NCBI GenBank assembly: GCA_045636285.1
Contig: JAZTXJ010000068.1
Location: 1 to 57,333 of the forward strand
Reading direction: 5' to 3'
Length of the DNA stretch: 57,333 nt
Source: Eubacteriales bacterium
Lineage (GTDB): Bacteria; Bacillota; Clostridia; Oscillospirales; CAG-382
Shown: one piece after another, positions 409-40,983 of the stretch
Layout of the letters: each line of letters starts with the position of its first letter
How positions within the stretch are numbered: position 1 is the stretch's first letter
Position numbers and translations under genes: made by a program
Notes under the pieces: model-generated
The model's input: the letters and a program-made list of their open reading frames with translations, nothing else
Told to the model about the DNA's origin: nothing
Database searches by the model: none

Positions 409-3081
409 TTATTTCAAGCCTATTATATAGTTAAGCTCATTAAGCAGTGCTTCCTTTACCGTTGCCGTTAATGCGGTATCCGATTCGACATCCGCGCAAA
501 CGGTGCCGAGCTCGGCGGAGAAGGCTATGAAATCGCCGCTCTTGCCCAAGCCTTCGATACGAGCGGCAAGCGCTTCGAGCGCGCTTCCTTCGGCTTCGGA
601 AAGCTTGCCCGCATAGCCGACCGCGAAGCGAATCGCTTTTATGCGGTGGATAAGCATTTCCGTGCTTGCCGTTATAAGCTCGGAATCGGGCGCGGTGGTC
701 GTCGTTGCCGCCACGCGAAACGCGTTGGACACGGTTTTATCGTACCCGCAGGTGCCGATATAGCGAAGCGTGAATACCGAAACGCCCTCTGCACAAAGCT
801 CGTAAGGCATTATAAACTGCTCTTCGATAGATTTATGCGTCGCTCTGACGTAGGTACCGACACCGAGAACAAGCTGTGTATGCTCGGTTACGGGAAGTAT
901 TTCCTCGGCATATTTCTGCTGATATTCGGTAGTATCTCCGTATATCATCGGGAATATCGCATCGGCATAACCGTTTTCCGCCCATTTTTCGACGTCCTGA
1001 TAGGTATAAATCTGTCTGTCGCGGTAATCGGCAAAGCAGGTAAAGCTTACGTGAAGCTCGGGATTTACCGCCTTGACCGTTTCGTAAAAGCTCTTTTGGT
1101 AATCGGAGATTATATCTCTTCTCCAAGCGCACCACTTTTCCCAAAGCGGATCGGTTATTTCCAGCTTGGCGGGGTCCTTGCCGTATTTTTTGATAAAGCC
1201 CGATTTACTGCTTTCGTTATAGCCGAAATCCTCGTAATTGTGCGCCTGATAATAATAAGGAAGCGGGTAGCGCATATAGTCCGCCTGAATACCGAAAACG
1301 TCGTATTTTTCGGCAATTTCTTTTACTATCGCAAGGTTGAATGCCTGAACGTCCTTATCTGCGGGGTCGAGCGTTATAACTCCGTCGGGTCCCGCAACTC
1401 TGCCTCTGTTTGTAAGCAGATATTTATCCTTGTATATGCTCATATAGTGATTTTCGGGATAGGCTACGTCCTCGAGCCCGCTCGAAAATGCGTTTACCAT
1501 CACTATAAGCTTTATTCCTTCTGCATCGCACGCCTGCTTGAACGCGGCGATAATATCGAAATTCTTGTAATCGCGATAGGTAACAAAGCCTTCGACCTCG
1601 CTGTTATATACCGCAAAGCCTGCGACGTGGTTATCGATTATAAGCGTATTGAGCCCGCAATGCTTCGCATAGGCAACGGTATGATCGACGTCATTCTGAT
1701 TGGTATAGTGAAGCACCACGTTTTTGGAGTAATCGTATTCGCCTATCGTTACCCAAGCCATTCTGTCCTGAACGGTGACATAGGGAACAAGCTCGTTTTT
1801 GGCTTCGTTCACTTCCGCGAAAAGCGCCTTGACCGCTTCGGCAAGCGATTCCGCATCGCCGTTCGAGATCGAAGCTTCGGCTTTTTCGGTATCTGCGGTT
1901 GCAGATTGGATAAGCCCTGCCGCTTTTTCGAAATCTATTCTGCTCAGCTTTTCGACAGAGGTGCCGTATTCCTTTTTAATCGCTTCAAGCTCTGCCTTCA
2001 GCCTTGCAAGCTCGGTTTTCGGGGTGGTTACGATACGAATTGCACGCGGGCCGTTTTTTATAACGAGCGCGTTCAATACGGCGATTCTTTTAAGCGTTTC
2101 TGCGGCAAGTCCCGTTGCAGAAACGATATATCCGCCCTTTTGAGGCTTTTTCATTCCCGAGCAAGCGGGAAATATTTCGGTTATTCTTCCGTTCGCATCG
2201 ACAGAAATTTCGGTTACGTTCTGTCCGACGGGTGTTGCCGTATACTTTTCGGACGTGAAGATCACTATTCCGTCCTCGACGCGTTCGGTATTGGTGCCCG
2301 CAACGCTCAGCTTTTTCGCGGTATAGAGCTTTTCGCTTTCGACAAGAACCGCCTCGTCGCCAATTTTCAGCCTTTGCACCTTGCGCTCGTTCGCGCTGTT
2401 TTCGCCGACGGTGAGCACGTATCCGCCCTTGGGGATCGCGATACCCGCAGCTTCATCGCGCGAGCGGGTGATTTCGACGATTTTGCCGTCGCATATCGCT
2501 ATTTCGGTGCAATAAATATTGCTTTCGGTGTTGCCGGTGTACCAATTTTCATCGTAAAGCCAGCCCGTATCTTCTGCGGTTCGAACGGTGTTTTTATATC
2601 CGACCTCGACATATACGTCACCGAATTTAACGTAGCTTTCGGGGAGTGCAGAAAGCTTTTCGTCTGCCAATTCCGCCTTGTCGCCGATGTTTATATCCGA
2701 AATATCCTCGCCGCGAAGACGGACAACGAACCCGTCCTCGGGAATGACTGTATTTCTGCCCTTTTCGCCGATTTCGACAACGATTCCGTCGAGCGATACA
2801 ATATCGTAAAAATCGCCGTTTTCGGATTTGGGGGTGGCAGACCATTCGTAACCGCGCGTGAACAGATAAGCTCCGTTTTCGGCGCCGTCTGCGTTTATAT
2901 TTCTTTTGAGCTCGTATTCCCTGCTTCCGAGCATAAATCTTTTCGCTTCTTCGGTCGGTTCGGATTCAAGCCCGAGCTCCGAGCTTTCCGCCTGTTCGCC
3001 GTTATTGCAGGAAACGAGCAACGGACAAAGCATAAATGCCGCACAGAAAAACGCAAGCATGCGTTTTTTCGTCATTTTCAT
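409..3081 (-). CDS. Lipoprotein with three N-terminal repeats and a C-terminal glycosyl hydrolase-like family 10 (GHL10/DUF187) domain
   Basis: Lipobox LLVSC. C-terminal GHL10-like motifs R-MAWV, GLNTL, LDPADKDVQAF...IVKEIAEKYDVFGIQADYMRYP, W..WRR..I, YQD..KW.ENGY.D.IFPMIY. Three N-terminal repeats end in IPEDGFVV / IPKGGYVL / PQKGGYIV. Confidence 0.8.
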   Translation of the reverse strand: MKMTKKRMLAFFCAAFMLCPLLVSCNNGEQAESSELGLESEPTEEAKRFMLGSREYELKRNINADGAENGAYLFTRGYEWSATPKSENGDFYDIVSLDGIVVEIGEKGRNTVIPEDGFVVRLRGEDISDINIGDKAELADEKLSALPESYVKFGDVYVEVGYKNTVRTAEDTGWLYDENWYTGNTESNIYCTEIAICDGKIVEITRSRDEAAGIAIPKGGYVLTVGENSANERKVQRLKIGDEAVLVESEKLYTAKKLSVAGTNTERVEDGIVIFTSEKYTATPVGQNVTEISVDANGRITEIFPACSGMKKPQKGGYIVSATGLAAETLKRIAVLNALVIKNGPRAIRIVTTPKTELARLKAELEAIKKEYGTSVEKLSRIDFEKAAGLIQSATADTEKAEASISNGDAESLAEAVKALFAEVNEAKNELVPYVTVQDRMAWVTIGEYDYSKNVVLHYTNQNDVDHTVAYAKHCGLNTLIIDNHVAGFAVYNSEVEGFVTYRDYKNFDIIAAFKQACDAEGIKLIVMVNAFSSGLEDVAYPENHYMSIYKDKYLLTNRGRVAGPDGVITLDPADKDVQAFNLAIVKEIAEKYDVFGIQADYMRYPLPYYYQAHNYEDFGYNESSKSGFIKKYGKDPAKLEITDPLWEKWCAWRRDIISDYQKSFYETVKAVNPELHVSFTCFADYRDRQIYTYQDVEKWAENGYADAIFPMIYGDTTEYQQKYAEEILPVTEHTQLVLGVGTYVRATHKSIEEQFIMPYELCAEGVSVFTLRYIGTCGYDKTVSNAFRVAATTTTAPDSELITASTEMLIHRIKAIRFAVGYAGKLSEAEGSALEALAARIEGLGKSGDFIAFSAELGTVCADVESDTALTATVKEALLNELNYIIGLK

Positions 3082-3613: not shown

Positions 3614-5344
3614 TTATTCCTCCATTGCAGACATAAGCAACGTTGCGAATTCGCGGTAATCGTCGGCAGAAAGGCTCATTATCTTTTCTCTTTCCCAGTT
3701 TGCATAGAGCTTTGCGATTTCGCGTTCGCGGAGCACGAGGGTATAGGCTTTATCGATTACTTCGGCAAGGTTGCGCTTTTCGGCTTCCTTAAGAAGCACG
3801 AAATAACGTATGCCGCGTATAAGCGTTTTCAGTCTTAAGGTTTCGATAGGCTTGCCGTCGGGCGAGGGATAAACGTAGCCGAGGTCGCCCACGGGGAACG
3901 GACCGTAACGAAGGTCGCTGTTGGGGAAATCCGTCCAGCAGGTATAGCTCCAGCGCAAAAATCCGTCCATCTTCGCAAACGCCGCGAGAATACCGGTATA
4001 ATAACCGTCGACAAGCTCACTGCGAAGGAAGCTGTTGGGAATTTCGGGACAGCAACAAACGTAATAGAGGAAGCGCTTTTCGGGCATTTCGGCTCTGAAC
4101 TGCATAAGCGCGTCGTATTCGCTGTACATTGCCGAAATATAGGGCGCGAAATCGAAAATATCCTTGCCGAACTCGTTTACAAATTCGGCGTGGTTGATAG
4201 CGGTTTTGTATTTAAAGGTGGGAGCAACCGACTTAATGTGCTCAAGGCTCTTGCGGTATGCCTCGATGTCGGCGGGCTCGTCCGCCGCAATGCGTACGCG
4301 GTCTATTTGATTTGTGCTTGTAAAATAAGCCTCGAGCGCGCGGATATAAGTATCGATTTCCGCCGCGGTGTGCAGGTAGCCGTAAACACCGCTTGCTTCA
4401 TCGTATACGCGGATATGTATTCCGTCGGGATAATCGGGTGCGGTGCGTACTCCGCCGTATTCCTTGGTATCCCAAACGTTCACCAAGCCGTAAACCGAAA
4501 TACATTCGTCGATACCGTATTCTGCACAAAGGTCGATATATCTCTGCATTACCGAATAATCGAATTCAAGCGTGCCGTCTGCCTTGCGGGTTACGGCTAT
4601 CATCGAATATTCGAAAAGATTTGCGCTGTATCTCTGCTCGTTCTGGCACGCCTGACCGTTCCAAGGAATTTCGGATGCGATAACGGTCACGCACTTCACG
4701 CCCGAATTACCGAGCGATACGCAGTAATTACGCAAAAGCTCGAAATGGCGGTCGCTCCACAAGCGTACACCGTGCTGTCTTGCGATATTCGAGGGGTGCT
4801 GCCATAAATCGAGATGGAAGCCGTTATCCTTATTGTCGGGGAAGGTAAACCCGAAAACGTCGAGCGAAATTGCGATTTCGCCTACAAGTATTTCATCGGC
4901 AAAGCCGTAGCCTTCATATATTTTCAGCTTGCCCTCGAAGCTTCCCTTTTCTGCGTCCTTCGGTATTGCGATTTCGCAGTAAACCGAAAGAATGCCGTCT
5001 GCTTCGGCTTCGACAACAGCCTTTTCCTGCAAAGAATCGGCACGGTAAAAGGCATCGTCGCAAAGATGCATACCGATATGGAACAGCTTGCTTTCGAACG
5101 GAAAATCGCATTCGATGCGTATGTTTTTACGTCTTACCTGCTGTGAAAACCACGGCTGGCTTGTAAGATTGAGCGCAAACAGCTCGTCTGCCGTAATAAC
5201 CACCTGGAATGCGGCAGTATCGTTTTTGCCCGCAACGAGCTTTATGCTCTTGGGCATTGCTTCGATATTGGAATTGTTGAATCTTGCTCTGTCACCCCAT
5301 ATAAGCTTGAAGCTTTCGGGTGCGGCGCCGTAAAGTATTTTCAT
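3614..5344 (-). CDS. DUF4091 / GH123-like glycoside hydrolase
   Basis: FHLDLWQHP, DEP catalytic-like motif (AADEPAD), YYVCC, GFLRWSY..W, GD...VYP, LR...L.RGI..F.LL C-terminal motif. No signal peptide. Confidence 0.75.
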   Translation of the reverse strand: MKILYGAAPESFKLIWGDRARFNNSNIEAMPKSIKLVAGKNDTAAFQVVITADELFALNLTSQPWFSQQVRRKNIRIECDFPFESKLFHIGMHLCDDAFYRADSLQEKAVVEAEADGILSVYCEIAIPKDAEKGSFEGKLKIYEGYGFADEILVGEIAISLDVFGFTFPDNKDNGFHLDLWQHPSNIARQHGVRLWSDRHFELLRNYCVSLGNSGVKCVTVIASEIPWNGQACQNEQRYSANLFEYSMIAVTRKADGTLEFDYSVMQRYIDLCAEYGIDECISVYGLVNVWDTKEYGGVRTAPDYPDGIHIRVYDEASGVYGYLHTAAEIDTYIRALEAYFTSTNQIDRVRIAADEPADIEAYRKSLEHIKSVAPTFKYKTAINHAEFVNEFGKDIFDFAPYISAMYSEYDALMQFRAEMPEKRFLYYVCCCPEIPNSFLRSELVDGYYTGILAAFAKMDGFLRWSYTCWTDFPNSDLRYGPFPVGDLGYVYPSPDGKPIETLRLKTLIRGIRYFVLLKEAEKRNLAEVIDKAYTLVLREREIAKLYANWEREKIMSLSADDYREFATLLMSAMEE

Positions 5345-40301: not shown

Positions 40302-40380
40302 TTTTATATCTTTCTATAACATTGATATAAAACCAGCATCGCATTTGTCTGTACAAATACTTTTGGGCTTGGCCAAACCC

Positions 40381-40731
40381 TTATTTTGATTTGATTGTTT
40401 TAAGAGAAGAAATTAACATTCTGCGAATTGCACCGCAATCGTTTTGTAATGTCTTATAATCTTCTTCGTTCATACAATCAGTTTCATAAAGAAGTTCTAA
40501 CCAATATTCCGTTTCATAACATTCTTTTTGCGCTATTTCAAGCTTTGATATAAAATCGTTAGTACTTTGAGCATATTGTGCTTCGTGTAGATTTGCACCG
40601 ATAGAAGTAGCAGAACGAAGCAGTTGATTAACCAAACCCGATTCTTTATGATTTGCTTTCATTTCGCGGCAAAGAAAAACAATCGCTTTTGCAAATTCTT
40701 TTGCTTTATCTCTTAAAATGCTGTCAGCCAT
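40381..40731 (-). CDS. Four helix bundle protein (TIGR02436 / 23S rRNA IVP / bAvd-like)
   Basis: K...FA..IV.L..., QLLRSATSIGANLHEAQYAQS..DFISKLEIAQKECYETEYWLELL, I.RML.SS.KT.K. ATG 40731 after GAGGTG. Confidence 0.93.
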   Translation of the reverse strand: MADSILRDKAKEFAKAIVFLCREMKANHKESGLVNQLLRSATSIGANLHEAQYAQSTNDFISKLEIAQKECYETEYWLELLYETDCMNEEDYKTLQNDCGAIRRMLISSLKTIKSK

Positions 40732-40750
40732 TCTTATCACCTCGAATTTC

Positions 40751-40779
40751 ATTATACACAAAAGTATAATGTTTTTCAA
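40751..40779 (-). promoter_or_regulatory. sigmaA promoter of the four-helix-bundle gene, overlapping an inverted repeat
   Basis: Minus TTGAAA(40779-40774)-17-TATAAT(40756-40751). The -10 is one arm of ATTATAC-ACAAAA-GTATAAT. Confidence 0.7.
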
Positions 40780-40983
40780 GTTATATTCCGACTTCGTCGG
40801 AGTGATATTATTGCATTCGCAATAGTGTTATTGAACCCTTGCGGCTTCAGTGGTATTTTATTCGCCTCAAACTGCCGAAGGCAATATCACTATGCGAAGC
40901 ATAATATAACTGCGAAGCAATATAACTCGCCGTTTTTCAAAGCGGCGAATAAAACTGCGAGACTTCCTTGTGGGAAGTCTCGC
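40779..40983. repeat. Mirror-symmetric repeat/hairpin array (9-nt AATAHMACT repeats alternating with small hairpins)
   Basis: Four inverted 9-mers (40779, 40801, 40824, 40849) and four direct 9-mers (40883, 40903, 40919, 40948). Successive repeats are separated by a different short hairpin. Confidence 0.85.

Follow-up and report, generated by a model that had tools for sequence, protein, structure and literature searches.

The two halves of a repeat array in the window, by which we mean the whole 57,333-nt stretch of DNA analysed, are convergent copies of the Rfam family RF01706, "Gut-1 RNA", and the new point to emerge is a tight coupling between Gut-1 and the genes that encode a small protein with a four-helix bundle, of the S23p/IVP family. 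The explanation that we favour, with about as much confidence as doubt, is that the array constitutes the paired non-coding arms of a small, multi-copy and insertion-polymorphic module of gut Oscillospirales, and that the IVP protein recognises these arms as folded single strands. It is favoured because of the Gut-1 copies, the coupling to IVP genes, the tracking of linker motifs with IVP clades, covariation, insertion polymorphism, the presence of arrays across phyla and the protein fold.

The array extends over positions 40779-40956, where eight 9-mers, AGTNNTATT, four per strand, are separated by short palindromes, all as located in the first-pass annotation of this DNA. The 9-mer occurs 12 times in the window, against an expectation of 5.63 +/- 2.19, and eight of the 12 copies lie inside 40779-40956, the first four on the plus strand and the next four on the minus strand. 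A repeat search yielded inverted pairs of the 9-mer, an 11-bp terminal hairpin at 40957-40983 and an 11-nt long-range complement between 40856-66 and 40944-54. The features of the locus, together with their basis, are as follows.

40957..40983, minus strand: outer boundary hairpin with an 11-bp stem and a 5-nt loop, followed by AGTTTTATT (terminator scan and repeat search)
40879..40957, minus strand: arm A, a Gut-1 copy on the same strand as the IVP gene (RF01706 match)
40944..40954, listed without strand: 5' strand of the long-range stem P0, as read on the minus strand (11/11 complementary to its partner)
40856..40866, listed without strand: 3' strand of P0, located mid-array (complementarity and MFE fold of arm A)
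40778..40861, plus strand: arm B, another Gut-1 copy, inverted so that it converges on arm A (RF01706 match)
40751..40779, minus strand: sigma-70-type promoter TTGAAA-17-TATAAT (promoter scan, 11 of 12 matches)
40737..40743, minus strand: Shine-Dalgarno sequence GAGGTGA of the IVP gene (read from the sequence)
40381..40731, minus strand: IVP gene, stop codon included, for a 116-aa four-helix-bundle protein (PF05635 / TIGR02436)
40325..40380, minus strand: conserved two-hairpin leader-like element (comparison with contigs C84 and C20 and sites L173 and L174)

An M23-peptidase gene and a GNAT gene flank the window copy, whose array is placed between a terminator and a promoter. The boundary hairpin is the first and longest of the module and resembles a terminator for the M23-peptidase/dockerin gene upstream; its end, position 40983, is also where homology ceases for related modules in three other genomes. 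Within arm A the four 9-mers are separated by mini-hairpins with TTC loops, while arm B, read on the IVP strand, carries three hairpins with GAA, GAAT and GCAA loops and AATANNACT linkers. This loop reading, with TTC and the other complements on the opposite strand, had been made correctly from the letters alone, and TTC (71) and GAA (41) are the most frequent loops over 601 spacers. The 5' strand of P0 comprises the first linker and the 5' arm of hairpin 1, local pairing as hairpin 1 being the alternative. The -35 hexamer abuts the last linker of the array, with a like arrangement at related loci, and the leader-like element directly follows the -10 box in module copies that lack IVP (contigs C84 and C20 of the same genome and the orthologous sites L173 and L174).

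Arm A (40879-40957, minus strand) matches RF01706 over the full model, positions 1-77, with 55.2 bits (E 1.8e-10), above the curated gathering cut-off of 50 bits, and Gut-1 is the sole Rfam family above cut-off in the window; arm B (40778-40861, plus strand) falls under the cut-off with 30.9 bits (E 2.6e-4). The array had been taken for undescribed, with the proviso that a match to a described Rfam family would count against this, and since arm A provides such a match the claim has to be given up. Nor is the array special to the window locus. It is a dispersed repeat, most copies of which have no adjacent IVP gene: the genome of origin, an 82% complete MAG, carries 44 Gut-1 matches in 1.99 Mb, distributed over 31 loci of which 16 abut a contig end and at least five are convergent pairs. 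The other genomes compared are also MAGs, and related ones among them are not independent.

Weinberg et al. (2010, Genome Biol 11:R31) listed Gut-1 as an orphan and likely non-coding RNA, with "human gut only" as its origin. As described in the accessible text of that paper, it resembles the present arrays in its three hairpins, the conserved 7-9-nt linker between them, its CUUCG-type loops and its gut origin. The published element corresponds to a single arm, however, whereas here the arms come as convergent pairs that an additional long-range stem closes, with a terminator at one boundary, a promoter at the other and a coupling to IVP genes. The family is also multi-copy in MAGs of the Acutalibacteraceae and of other Oscillospirales, many of which derive from ruminant or other animal guts. 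In our literature search, which took in the accessible text of Weinberg et al. (2010), neither Gut-1 nor heptamer arrays were linked to IVP.

Coupling to IVP genes was assessed in several ways. In the genome of origin, linker-hairpin arrays lie directly upstream of five of the six IVP genes, and the sixth (contig C134) is flanked by inverted heptamers without hairpins. The first-pass annotation had anticipated enrichment of the array next to four-helix-bundle (TIGR02436/PF05635) genes, and this proved strong and specific: a strict detector was positive upstream of 21/34 and 31/76 IVP genes, while for other genes the figure was 7/1521 and for regions downstream of IVP genes 1/76 (Fisher p 4e-59). 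A measure based on chains of hairpin units gave 21/32 and 50/76 for IVP genes, compared with 40/1521 controls and 2/76 IVP-downstream regions, and inspection by eye of IVP regions negative with the strict detector revealed arrays in 19 of 20, plus three further loci. All 23 IVP-bearing relatives have Gut-1, seven genomes carry Gut-1 without IVP (1-5 copies each) and 11 have neither; across 16 further families of this order the Gut-1/IVP split is 5/2/0/9 (p 0.005). The copy numbers of the two correlate (rho 0.84), and the linker motif tracks the IVP clade, although this tracking could reflect co-inheritance alone. Other detectors were discarded. One based on hairpin density (168 clusters, 45 in shuffles) was dropped because it missed the window's own array, and a loose 8-mer chain detector and a count, T, of the motif plus its reverse complement were not used because they did not separate IVP regions from controls.

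The observation that the stems differ but stay paired was borne out on 26 related arrays, in which 96.1% of 908 cells are paired compared with 84.6% in shuffles (0/500 reach 96.1%). The covariation check recommended at the outset was run on the same arrays and the stems covary: changes occur on both sides in 16 of 35 pairs, and covariation scores 0.299, where shuffles give 0.096 and slid controls at most 0.04. The perfect complement between 40856-66 and 40944-54, and the alternative branched folds attributed to it, also exist. The long-range stem is conserved, with an equivalent perfect stem of at least 10 bp in 88/108 IVP-upstream regions and in 2/108 shuffles, and its sequence differs per subfamily and covaries between subfamilies. 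In the MFE structure of arm A the P0 stem encloses three hairpins. Linkers number 4+4 in every array and their spacing ranges from 16 to 25 nt.

Folding of the whole region as RNA gave z = -7.0 for the minus and -8.8 for the plus strand, and folding it as DNA gave z = -8.2; in no case did any of 200 shuffles fold equally well. Single halves, folded as RNA or DNA on either strand, gained modestly over shuffles (z -1.7 to -3.9), and single-arm folding therefore does not discriminate between strands or molecules. The stem pairs comprise 864 Watson-Crick, 9 G-T and 6 A-C pairs, with no strand bias. We lean towards a DNA-level or strand-symmetric role, given the near-pure Watson-Crick stems and the placement between terminator and promoter; the near absence of G-U pairs and of strand bias does not favour an RNA made from one strand. 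A search of sequencing runs found no RNA run with the stretch, any run containing at most 0.14 of its words.

In the working that we propose, the module would begin with the boundary hairpin/terminator, continue through the Gut-1 copy of arm A and the inverted one of arm B to a strong promoter, and end with the leader, which an IVP ORF may or may not precede. The arms would work as folded single strands, every short palindrome forming a mini-hairpin and the first linker pairing with the centre to close arm A, so that four 9-nt linkers would be presented per arm. An IVP oligomer with a bAvd-like fold would recognise the linkers, both at its own gene and at many ORF-less copies, and this recognition would help the element to spread or to be maintained and might also control the abutting promoter. 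Here we infer the binding by the protein, the strand and nucleic acid that fold and the mechanism of mobility. Several points count against the scheme. The arms of true 23S intervening sequences certainly act as RNA, most arrays stand without an adjacent IVP gene, and the seven genomes that lack IVP still hold a few Gut-1 copies. Furthermore, Rfam and, in its accessible text, Weinberg et al. (2010) file Gut-1 as RNA.

Alternatively, the array could be a dsDNA operator or insulator, with linkers that bind IVP or another regulator; it would block read-through and autoregulate IVP and the downstream gene, and the dispersed copies would represent a regulon or mobile promoter cassettes. This would account well for its exact fit between a terminator and a promoter of 11/12 matches, with the last linker against the -35 hexamer, for the repetition of this layout at related loci, for the retention of promoter and leader, facing other genes, in copies devoid of IVP, and for the Watson-Crick stems that lack strand bias. 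We nevertheless consider it improbable, because the variable linker spacing of 16 to 25 nt places the linker sites out of helical phase, and the compensatory stem changes and conserved P0 point to intrastrand folding. Moreover, the promoter is absent after arm B in tRNA-linked orphan copies, and in other lineages the arms flank the ORF or sit in rRNA.

We attach a similarly low probability to the arms being independent structured RNAs, each a Gut-1 sRNA or a 3'-UTR element stabilising or terminating the upstream transcript, with IVP genes as neighbours through shared terminator-proximal gaps. Membership of Rfam and the assignment as likely non-coding RNA in the accessible text of Weinberg et al. 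(2010) are in line with this, as are the TTC/TNC(G) hairpin loops, the terminator-like hairpin at the array start and the position of arm A, 21-57 nt after the 3' end of a co-directional gene or tRNA at 20 of the 27 loci with a callable upstream feature. Shared gaps do not, however, explain an IVP enrichment of about 25- to 190-fold that persists without a tRNA nearby, nor a linker type that follows the IVP clade. G-U pairs at only about 1%, without strand asymmetry, are unusual for an RNA selected on one strand, and the mirror layout would yield one sense and one antisense arm in any transcript.

Evidence for movement comes from comparison of sites. Among 31 closely related modules no two share an upstream flank, and the genes that follow them are of many kinds. 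At the orthologous sites L173 and L174, in two other genomes, exactly the RBS and IVP ORF are missing, and at one tRNA site in another genome the ~270-nt array module is missing. The earlier suggestion of a minimal mobile element fits these polymorphisms, in which the IVP ORF is present or absent and the array module is missing at the tRNA site, and the copy count and empty-site check suggested with it gave 44 matches, copies with and without IVP, and empty sites. The latter could be deletions. A search for an array-free M23/GNAT site found only dockerin paralogues (L175-L177), and neither a target-site duplication nor a catalytic motif came to light, which counts against the reading we favour. 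The element whose non-coding arms the arrays would form is tiny and probably mobile.

Such movement could also be that of a REP/BIME- or MITE-like selfish repeat mobilised by an unrelated host or element transposase, with IVP as passenger cargo and without a role for it at the array. REP/REPIN-RAYT systems and BIMEs do resemble the Gut-1 modules, as far as the accessible text describes them, in their short palindromic intergenic repeats, inverted doublets and tens to hundreds of copies, and in repeat subtypes matched to a cognate gene flanked by repeats (PMC3116915). The dispersed, often inverted-paired intergenic palindromes that break assemblies, the filled and empty sites and the ability of the module to do without the IVP ORF all agree with this. 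We judge it slightly less probable than the two preceding alternatives. Matches to the Y1 (RAYT/IS200) transposase, PF01797, number 0 in the 82%-complete genome of origin, arrays with lineage-specific units are near-universal at IVP genes over several phyla, which would be odd for a passenger, and Gut-1 copy number goes with IVP gene number. The cognate gene, unlike that of RAYT systems, encodes a 116-aa helical bundle without known catalytic activity rather than a Y1 transposase, and the conserved part, unlike that of REP, is the single-stranded linker and not the stem.

The window IVP matches Pfam PF05635, 23S_rRNA_IVP, with 100.3 bits (cut-off 33.8), TIGR02436 with 112.2 bits (cut-off 24) and PDB entry 2RLD with E 3.5e-41. 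Its predicted model (pLDDT 94, four helices) superimposes on 2RLD with a TM of 0.90, on 2GSC with 0.81-0.85 and on bAvd 4DWL with 0.80, and on this model the protein is a four-helix up-down bundle like 2RLD/2GSC. The relationship to Avd drawn at first reading holds for the predicted fold, which is that of bAvd: comparison with bAvd and with Avd in DGR ribonucleoprotein structures gives TM values of about 0.76-0.80 at 14-15% identity. In those ribonucleoprotein entries Avd is complexed with RNA and reverse transcriptase, and to our knowledge a role with nucleic acids is established for no other member of the fold. While the window protein shares its four-helix-bundle fold with bAvd (PDB 4DWL and the DGR RNP entries), it differs in the low identity, in the lack of a reverse transcriptase in its 82%-complete genome and in being much less basic. 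With a pI of 5.7 and a net charge of -2 it is acidic, and the family here is no more than mildly basic, with a median pI of 8.4, which counts against recognition of the arms. The closest solved relatives, 2RLD and 2GSC, are non-DGR proteins crystallised with five chains each, and a Xanthomonas member of the S23p/IVP family is cited as a homopentamer in the accessible text of PMC4990558. A pentamer with one subunit per linker was considered but not adopted, since arrays carry 4+4 full linkers and four linkers per arm, not five, do not match it in a simple way. An anti-phage defence label was rejected (0 PADLOC matches).

The fold similarity notwithstanding, it is extremely unlikely that IVP is the Avd accessory protein of a DGR and the array its template-flanking RNA, since RVT_1 (PF00078) has 0 matches in the 82%-complete genome despite six IVP genes, no template/variable repeat pair is seen and the nearest structures are non-DGR. 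The first-pass annotation had noted that no reverse transcriptase lies in the window, which is confirmed and extends to the whole 82%-complete assembly, and both the DGR and RAYT readings were set aside on the absence of reverse transcriptase and Y1 transposase from it.

Beyond the gut Oscillospirales, inverted tandem-heptamer arrays flank IVP ORFs at phylum-wide (Bacillota) loci, 14 of 27 scoring above all shuffles in an exact 7-mer test; by eye flanking arrays are present in about 25 of 28, those failing the exact test having imperfect repeats. Three of these loci lie inside 23S rRNA (L148, L150 and L157) and one in RNase P RNA (L159); cyanobacterial STRR arrays reportedly also occur inside RNase P RNA genes. 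The window array is best read as a local, hairpin-intercalated form of a general IVP/S23p architecture, in which the ORF lies between inverted heptamer arrays. More tentatively, and with a probability well below even, IVP/S23p could act in trans to recognise, and perhaps also to mobilise, a cross-phylum class of miniature elements with arms made of arrayed short tandem units, as one protein-guided system acting on folded single strands, the linker or heptamer being the address for a cognate paralogue; 23S rRNA intervening sequences, STRR-type arrays, Xanthomonas convergent pairs and Gut-1 would be its different faces.

The Coxiella 23S rRNA intervening sequence shares with the window element the S23p/IVP protein family, inverted arms and tandem heptamer repeats beside the ORF; according to the accessible text it carries GACAGAT three times and has a terminal stem of 28 bp, the sporadic distribution of such sequences suggests horizontal transfer, and the role of the protein is unexplained (PMC4990558). 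The window element differs in being intergenic, with its own promoter and numerous ORF-less copies, in having both arms upstream of the ORF rather than flanking it, and in the mini-hairpins between repeat units. An S23p/IVP ORF is present at the window locus, and insertion in a 23S helix and terminal inverted repeats flanking the ORF are not.

If correct, these readings would provide a common handle for Gut-1, which has had no function assigned to it since 2010, and for the S23p/IVP family, which has solved structures but no assigned function, and would bear on the origin of 23S intervening sequences, debated for about 30 years, and on unexplained dispersed heptamer arrays. The loci offer natural cognate pairs of protein clade and linker motif, as well as natural filled and empty sites. 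Were the coupling merely co-inheritance, Gut-1 would still be re-annotated: instead of a single-copy sRNA gene it would be a repeat module of Oscillospirales, dispersed and paired, that extends from a terminator to a promoter.

Cyanobacterial STRR (PMC2670836) and Xanthomonas GGGAATC arrays (PMC4692102) are likewise intergenic 7-nt tandem units of unexplained role, often in convergent inverted pairs able to form hairpins, as here; the accessible text of both papers makes no connection with IVP genes. Gut-1 arrays differ from them in having hairpins between the units. A possible link between Gut-1/IVP and these two groups of arrays is suggested by five plasmid loci: the IVP genes of Nostoc and Bernardetia plasmids lie, in 5/5 cases, between inverted heptamer arrays.

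The best reading of the array at 40779–40983, on its sequence and context, is that it forms the two arms of a selfish module resembling an intervening sequence. The first-pass annotation had described it as 9-mers alternating with palindromes, and sequence inspection and a repeat search bore out these elements and their positions, with the inverted 9-mer pairs also recovered by the repeat search. Its suggestion that the array might be undescribed did not hold, since comparison with Rfam yielded Gut-1 (RF01706), the only family above its cut-off in the window. Given that Gut-1 matches cover both halves on opposite strands, the apparent mirror symmetry amounts to two convergent Gut-1 units. The adjacent gene encodes a small four-helix-bundle protein, IVP (PF05635 23S_rRNA_IVP/TIGR02436).

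Features of the array and its surroundings
40779, 40801, 40824, 40849 (+): forward set of AGTNNTATT linkers, four copies interleaved with short palindromes
40883, 40903, 40919, 40948 (-): reverse set of AGTNNTATT linkers, four copies interleaved with short palindromes
40879-40957 (-): Gut-1 RNA (RF01706), cmscan 55.2 bits (cut-off 50)
40778-40861 (+): second Gut-1 copy, cmscan 30.9 bits (cut-off 50), E 2.6e-4
40957-40983: outer hairpin, 11 bp, from the repeat search
40856-66 / 40944-54: perfect 11-nt long-range complement, from the repeat search
40779-40751 (-, IVP strand): promoter TTGAAA-17-TATAAT, 11/12 match, with the -35 hexamer touching the last linker
40381-40731 (-): IVP ORF, PF05635 100 bits, TIGR02436 112 bits

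The AGTNNTATT pattern has 12 matches in the 57-kb window, 8 of them within the 178-nt array, compared with a whole-window expectation of 5.6 +/- 2.2. Read along the IVP strand, the outer hairpin together with AGTTTTATT scores as a terminator and, with the promoter abutting the last linker, the array thus occupies the gap between terminator and promoter. An operator or insulator acting as duplex DNA might be sought in such a gap, and we consider this improbable. The whole array folds far better than shuffled sequences on either strand, as RNA or DNA (z -7.0 to -8.8, 0/200 shuffles as good), with a modest gain for single arms folded alone (z -1.7 to -3.9).

Alignment of 26 arrays of the window's subfamily revealed four forward 9-mers in 25 and four reverse 9-mers in all 26, with start-to-start linker spacings of 16 to 25 nt. 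The stems covary strongly: 96.1% of cells are paired as against 84.6% in shuffles, both sides have changed in 16 of 35 stem pairs, and the covariation score is 0.299, compared with 0.096 for shuffles and at most 0.04 for slid controls. The early impression that stems differ yet stay paired was therefore correct, and the alternative branched folds envisaged at that stage correspond to a long-range stem, in which the first linker and the 5' arm of hairpin 1 pair with the array centre in competition with hairpin 1. This stem is invariant in the window's subfamily; perfect versions of at least 10 bp occur in 88 of 108 IVP-upstream regions and in 2 of 108 shuffles. Their position is constant, with a gap of about 70 nt, and their sequence is specific to each subfamily. 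Among 601 spacers, 251 carry a stem 5 bp or longer, as against 11 after shuffling, with 224 distinct stem arms and with TTC/GAA, TGC/GCA, TAC/GTA and their 4-nt relatives as dominant loops.

Gut-1 was catalogued as a probable non-coding RNA without assigned function, known from environmental sequence of "human gut only" (Weinberg et al. 2010), and one other paper uses it as a folding benchmark. An autonomous RNA or 3'-UTR element would accord with that listing and seems to us no likelier than an operator; stem pairs are nearly all Watson-Crick (864, with 9 G-T, 6 A-C and 29 other) and strand bias is absent.

Gut-1 is a dispersed repeat. The genome from which the window derives (1.99 Mb, 138 contigs, 82% complete) yielded 44 matches at E<=1, 13 of them above cut-off; the 40 that score 29 bits or more fall into 31 loci, 16 of which adjoin a contig end, as is usual for repeats. 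Linker classes AGTKATATT, GYGATATA, ATGAAATC, ATGATAT, GTGAAGC and ATGATGT coexist there. Including relatives, 30 of 41 genomes carry Gut-1, with up to 43 matches each: 22 of 24 of the same genus and 7 of 16 from other families of the order. By their record titles, related loci come from MAGs of Acutalibacteraceae, Oscillospiraceae, Ruminococcus and other Clostridia, many of them sampled from goat, sheep, deer or buffalo gut. A second Gut-1 context is seen on contigs of the window's own genome (C95:9476-9872, C41:222-480, C75:7808-7941, C29:1752-1886 and C4:111-187), where single Gut-1-like forward arms, sometimes in tandem, lie without inverted arm or IVP gene inside another repeat bounded by TGTAGGGACCGG... 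and ...CGGTCCCTACA.

The Pfam and TIGRFAM matches confirm a four-helix-bundle gene beside the array. Its profile matches 2RLD in the PDB (3.5e-41), and the structure model (pLDDT 94) superposes on 2RLD with TM 0.90, on 2GSC with 0.81–0.85 and, in keeping with the initial bAvd-like assignment, on bAvd 4DWL with 0.80 at 15% identity. Linker-hairpin arrays lie directly upstream of five of the six IVP genes in the genome; around the sixth (contig C134) lie inverted heptamers without hairpins. At 29 IVP loci of relatives, Rfam Gut-1 adjoins the gene in 11 and a same-strand tRNA gene lies just upstream in 20; the sequences, when read, have the same layout nearly everywhere with differing linkers, namely a gene or tRNA, terminator hairpin, forward arm, reverse arm, promoter, RBS and IVP. 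A human-faecal contig filed as unverified phage also carries tRNA, Gut-1 arrays and IVP.

Array and IVP gene are coupled, as the first-pass annotation anticipated. A strict detector (at least three similar 7-mers in a chain, then at least three of the reverse complement) and a hairpin-unit chain detector, both excluding regions <200 nt, were positive upstream of IVP genes in 21/34 and 21/32 cases, respectively, for the relatives' set and in 31/76 and 50/76 for 80 loci of named genomes, as against 7/1521 and 40/1521 for other ORFs of at least 100 aa in the own genome (Fisher p 4e-59 and 4e-67); downstream of IVP genes they found 1/76 and 2/76. Inspection of 20 of the 45 strict-negatives in the 80-locus set revealed arrays in 19, three of them one-armed or partial, and only a relic at locus L106; three further loci also proved to hold arrays. 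Among the 41 genomes, all 23 with IVP have Gut-1, 7 have Gut-1 (1–5 copies) without IVP and 11 have neither; the 16 from other families split 5/2/0/9 (both, Gut-1 alone, IVP alone, neither; p 0.005, genome-level values being overstated by non-independence of kin). Copy numbers of the two correlate (rho 0.84). When 34 IVP proteins are placed in a tree, their clades correspond to linker types, one clade having hairpin-less arrays, and co-inheritance alone could produce this match. One IVP subfamily with TCATAAC/GTTATGA linkers (loci L036, L038, L092, L094, L096, L097, L110, L112) always follows a gene ending ...PKP..TIEWE, has its arm order reversed with the GAA-loop arm first, and lacks an obvious promoter ahead of the IVP start.

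Signs of mobility, earlier raised as a possible minimal mobile element, were found. In 31 modules whose IVP is 71–90% identical to that of the window, the upstream flanks are all unrelated and the downstream flanks cluster only in part. The next gene often begins 2–17 nt past the IVP stop, and downstream ORFs (48 of 72 scanned) encode, among others, methyltransferase, GNAT, ion channel, HAD, CTP synthase, MnmA, NUDIX and barstar proteins. In three related genomes, similarity to the window breaks off at 40983, the outer hairpin. Sites are also polymorphic. Two other genomes of the genus (loci L173 and L174) lack roughly 358 bp comprising RBS and IVP ORF, and retain M23/dockerin gene, arrays, promoter and leader in order, with the GNAT start also present in one; at these sites, as on own contigs C84 and C20, the -10 box continues directly into a conserved two-hairpin leader. 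At a tRNA locus, the CCA end is followed directly by the terminator in another genome, and in the own genome a module of about 270 nt, with its own hairpin and both arms, lies between them. No target-site duplication was evident, and the empty sites may have arisen by deletion. Neither a Y1 transposase nor a reverse transcriptase was found in the genome (82% complete), and the lack of the latter contradicts a DGR role.

The two-hairpin element (window 40325-40380 (-), C84:4227-4290, C20 about 4090-4170, L173, L174) reads GGGTTTGG..CCC, then GCRTTTGT..ACAAATGC, then GATGCYGGTT, and follows the -10 box where the IVP ORF is absent and the IVP stop where it is present. Rfam yielded no match to this element, which may be a leader or small RNA. 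ORF-less arrays linked to tRNAs (own C130, C28, C124, C57; L023, L029, L179) are closed by a motif resembling the 3' half of a tRNA T-arm/acceptor, GAGAGTTCGAATTCATACGCAAAA and variants at the 3' end in the four own contigs. Inserts of about 150–190 nt after tRNA genes at L021 (upstream of 1982-2313), L022 and L178 (G362:C22:44850-45330) each end with a duplicated tRNA 3' end and its terminator, and look like another small element targeting tRNA 3' ends, separate from the Gut-1 arrays.

Slightly less probable still than the operator and RNA readings is a REP-like repeat that carries IVP as a passenger. Under the selfish-module reading, mini-hairpins would in this lineage have been intercalated between repeat units and both arms placed ahead of an optional IVP ORF; the linkers would be read by an IVP oligomer, the arms would act as folded single strands, and the system would move. 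Against it stand the mild charge of IVP (pI 5.7 in the window, median 8.4), the linker count of 4+4 and the excess of ORF-less copies.

PF05635 occurs in 49 of 301 genomes drawn phylum-wide. At 28 loci from other families the IVP ORF lies between an upstream tandem array of about 7-nt units and a downstream reverse-complement array, the unit being locus-specific; these arrays are plain on inspection at about 25 of the 28, and 14 of 27 exceed all 200 shuffles in an exact 7-mer test. Three phylum-wide loci lie within 23S rRNA genes and one within an RNase P RNA gene. At this last locus (L159, G092:C1:402344-405661) a bacterial class A RNase P RNA gene at 1229-2003 (-) (RF00010, 294 bits across 775 nt, model 367 positions) is interrupted by an IVP ORF whose arms are inverted and heptamer-like. 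The "intervening sequence" here lies in RNase P RNA and not in 23S rRNA. STRR heptamers reportedly occur inside RNase P RNA genes, going by one paper's title.

Earlier papers describe, in a Coxiella intervening sequence, tandem GACAGAT heptamers ahead of an S23p ORF and a 28-bp terminal stem, the function of S23p being not known and an older idea being that the ORF serves mobility (PMC4990558); hairpin-forming cyanobacterial STRR heptamers of unknown function (PMC2670836); and 70–75 convergent pairs of Xanthomonas GGGAATC arrays with no known role, in a paper that uses none of the terms S23, intervening or four helix (PMC4692102). Our literature search found no paper linking Gut-1, STRR, Xanthomonas or other such arrays to IVP. 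In a plasmid collection, all five hits, four from Nostoc and one from Bernardetia (Bacteroidota), carry the annotation "four helix bundle protein" and have inverted heptamer arrays on their flanks, and three of the four Nostoc copies split a cytosine-methyltransferase ORF. In the Nostoc plasmid loci L180, L183 and L184 the arms are (AATTCGC)n/(GCGAATT)n and a short ORF lies on either side of the element, one of the two being annotated as a fragment of a DNA cytosine methyltransferase, which suggests insertion in a protein-coding gene. At L145, L140 and L181 the upstream heptamer array is greatly expanded, reaching between about 15 and >40 units, and the downstream arm stays short.
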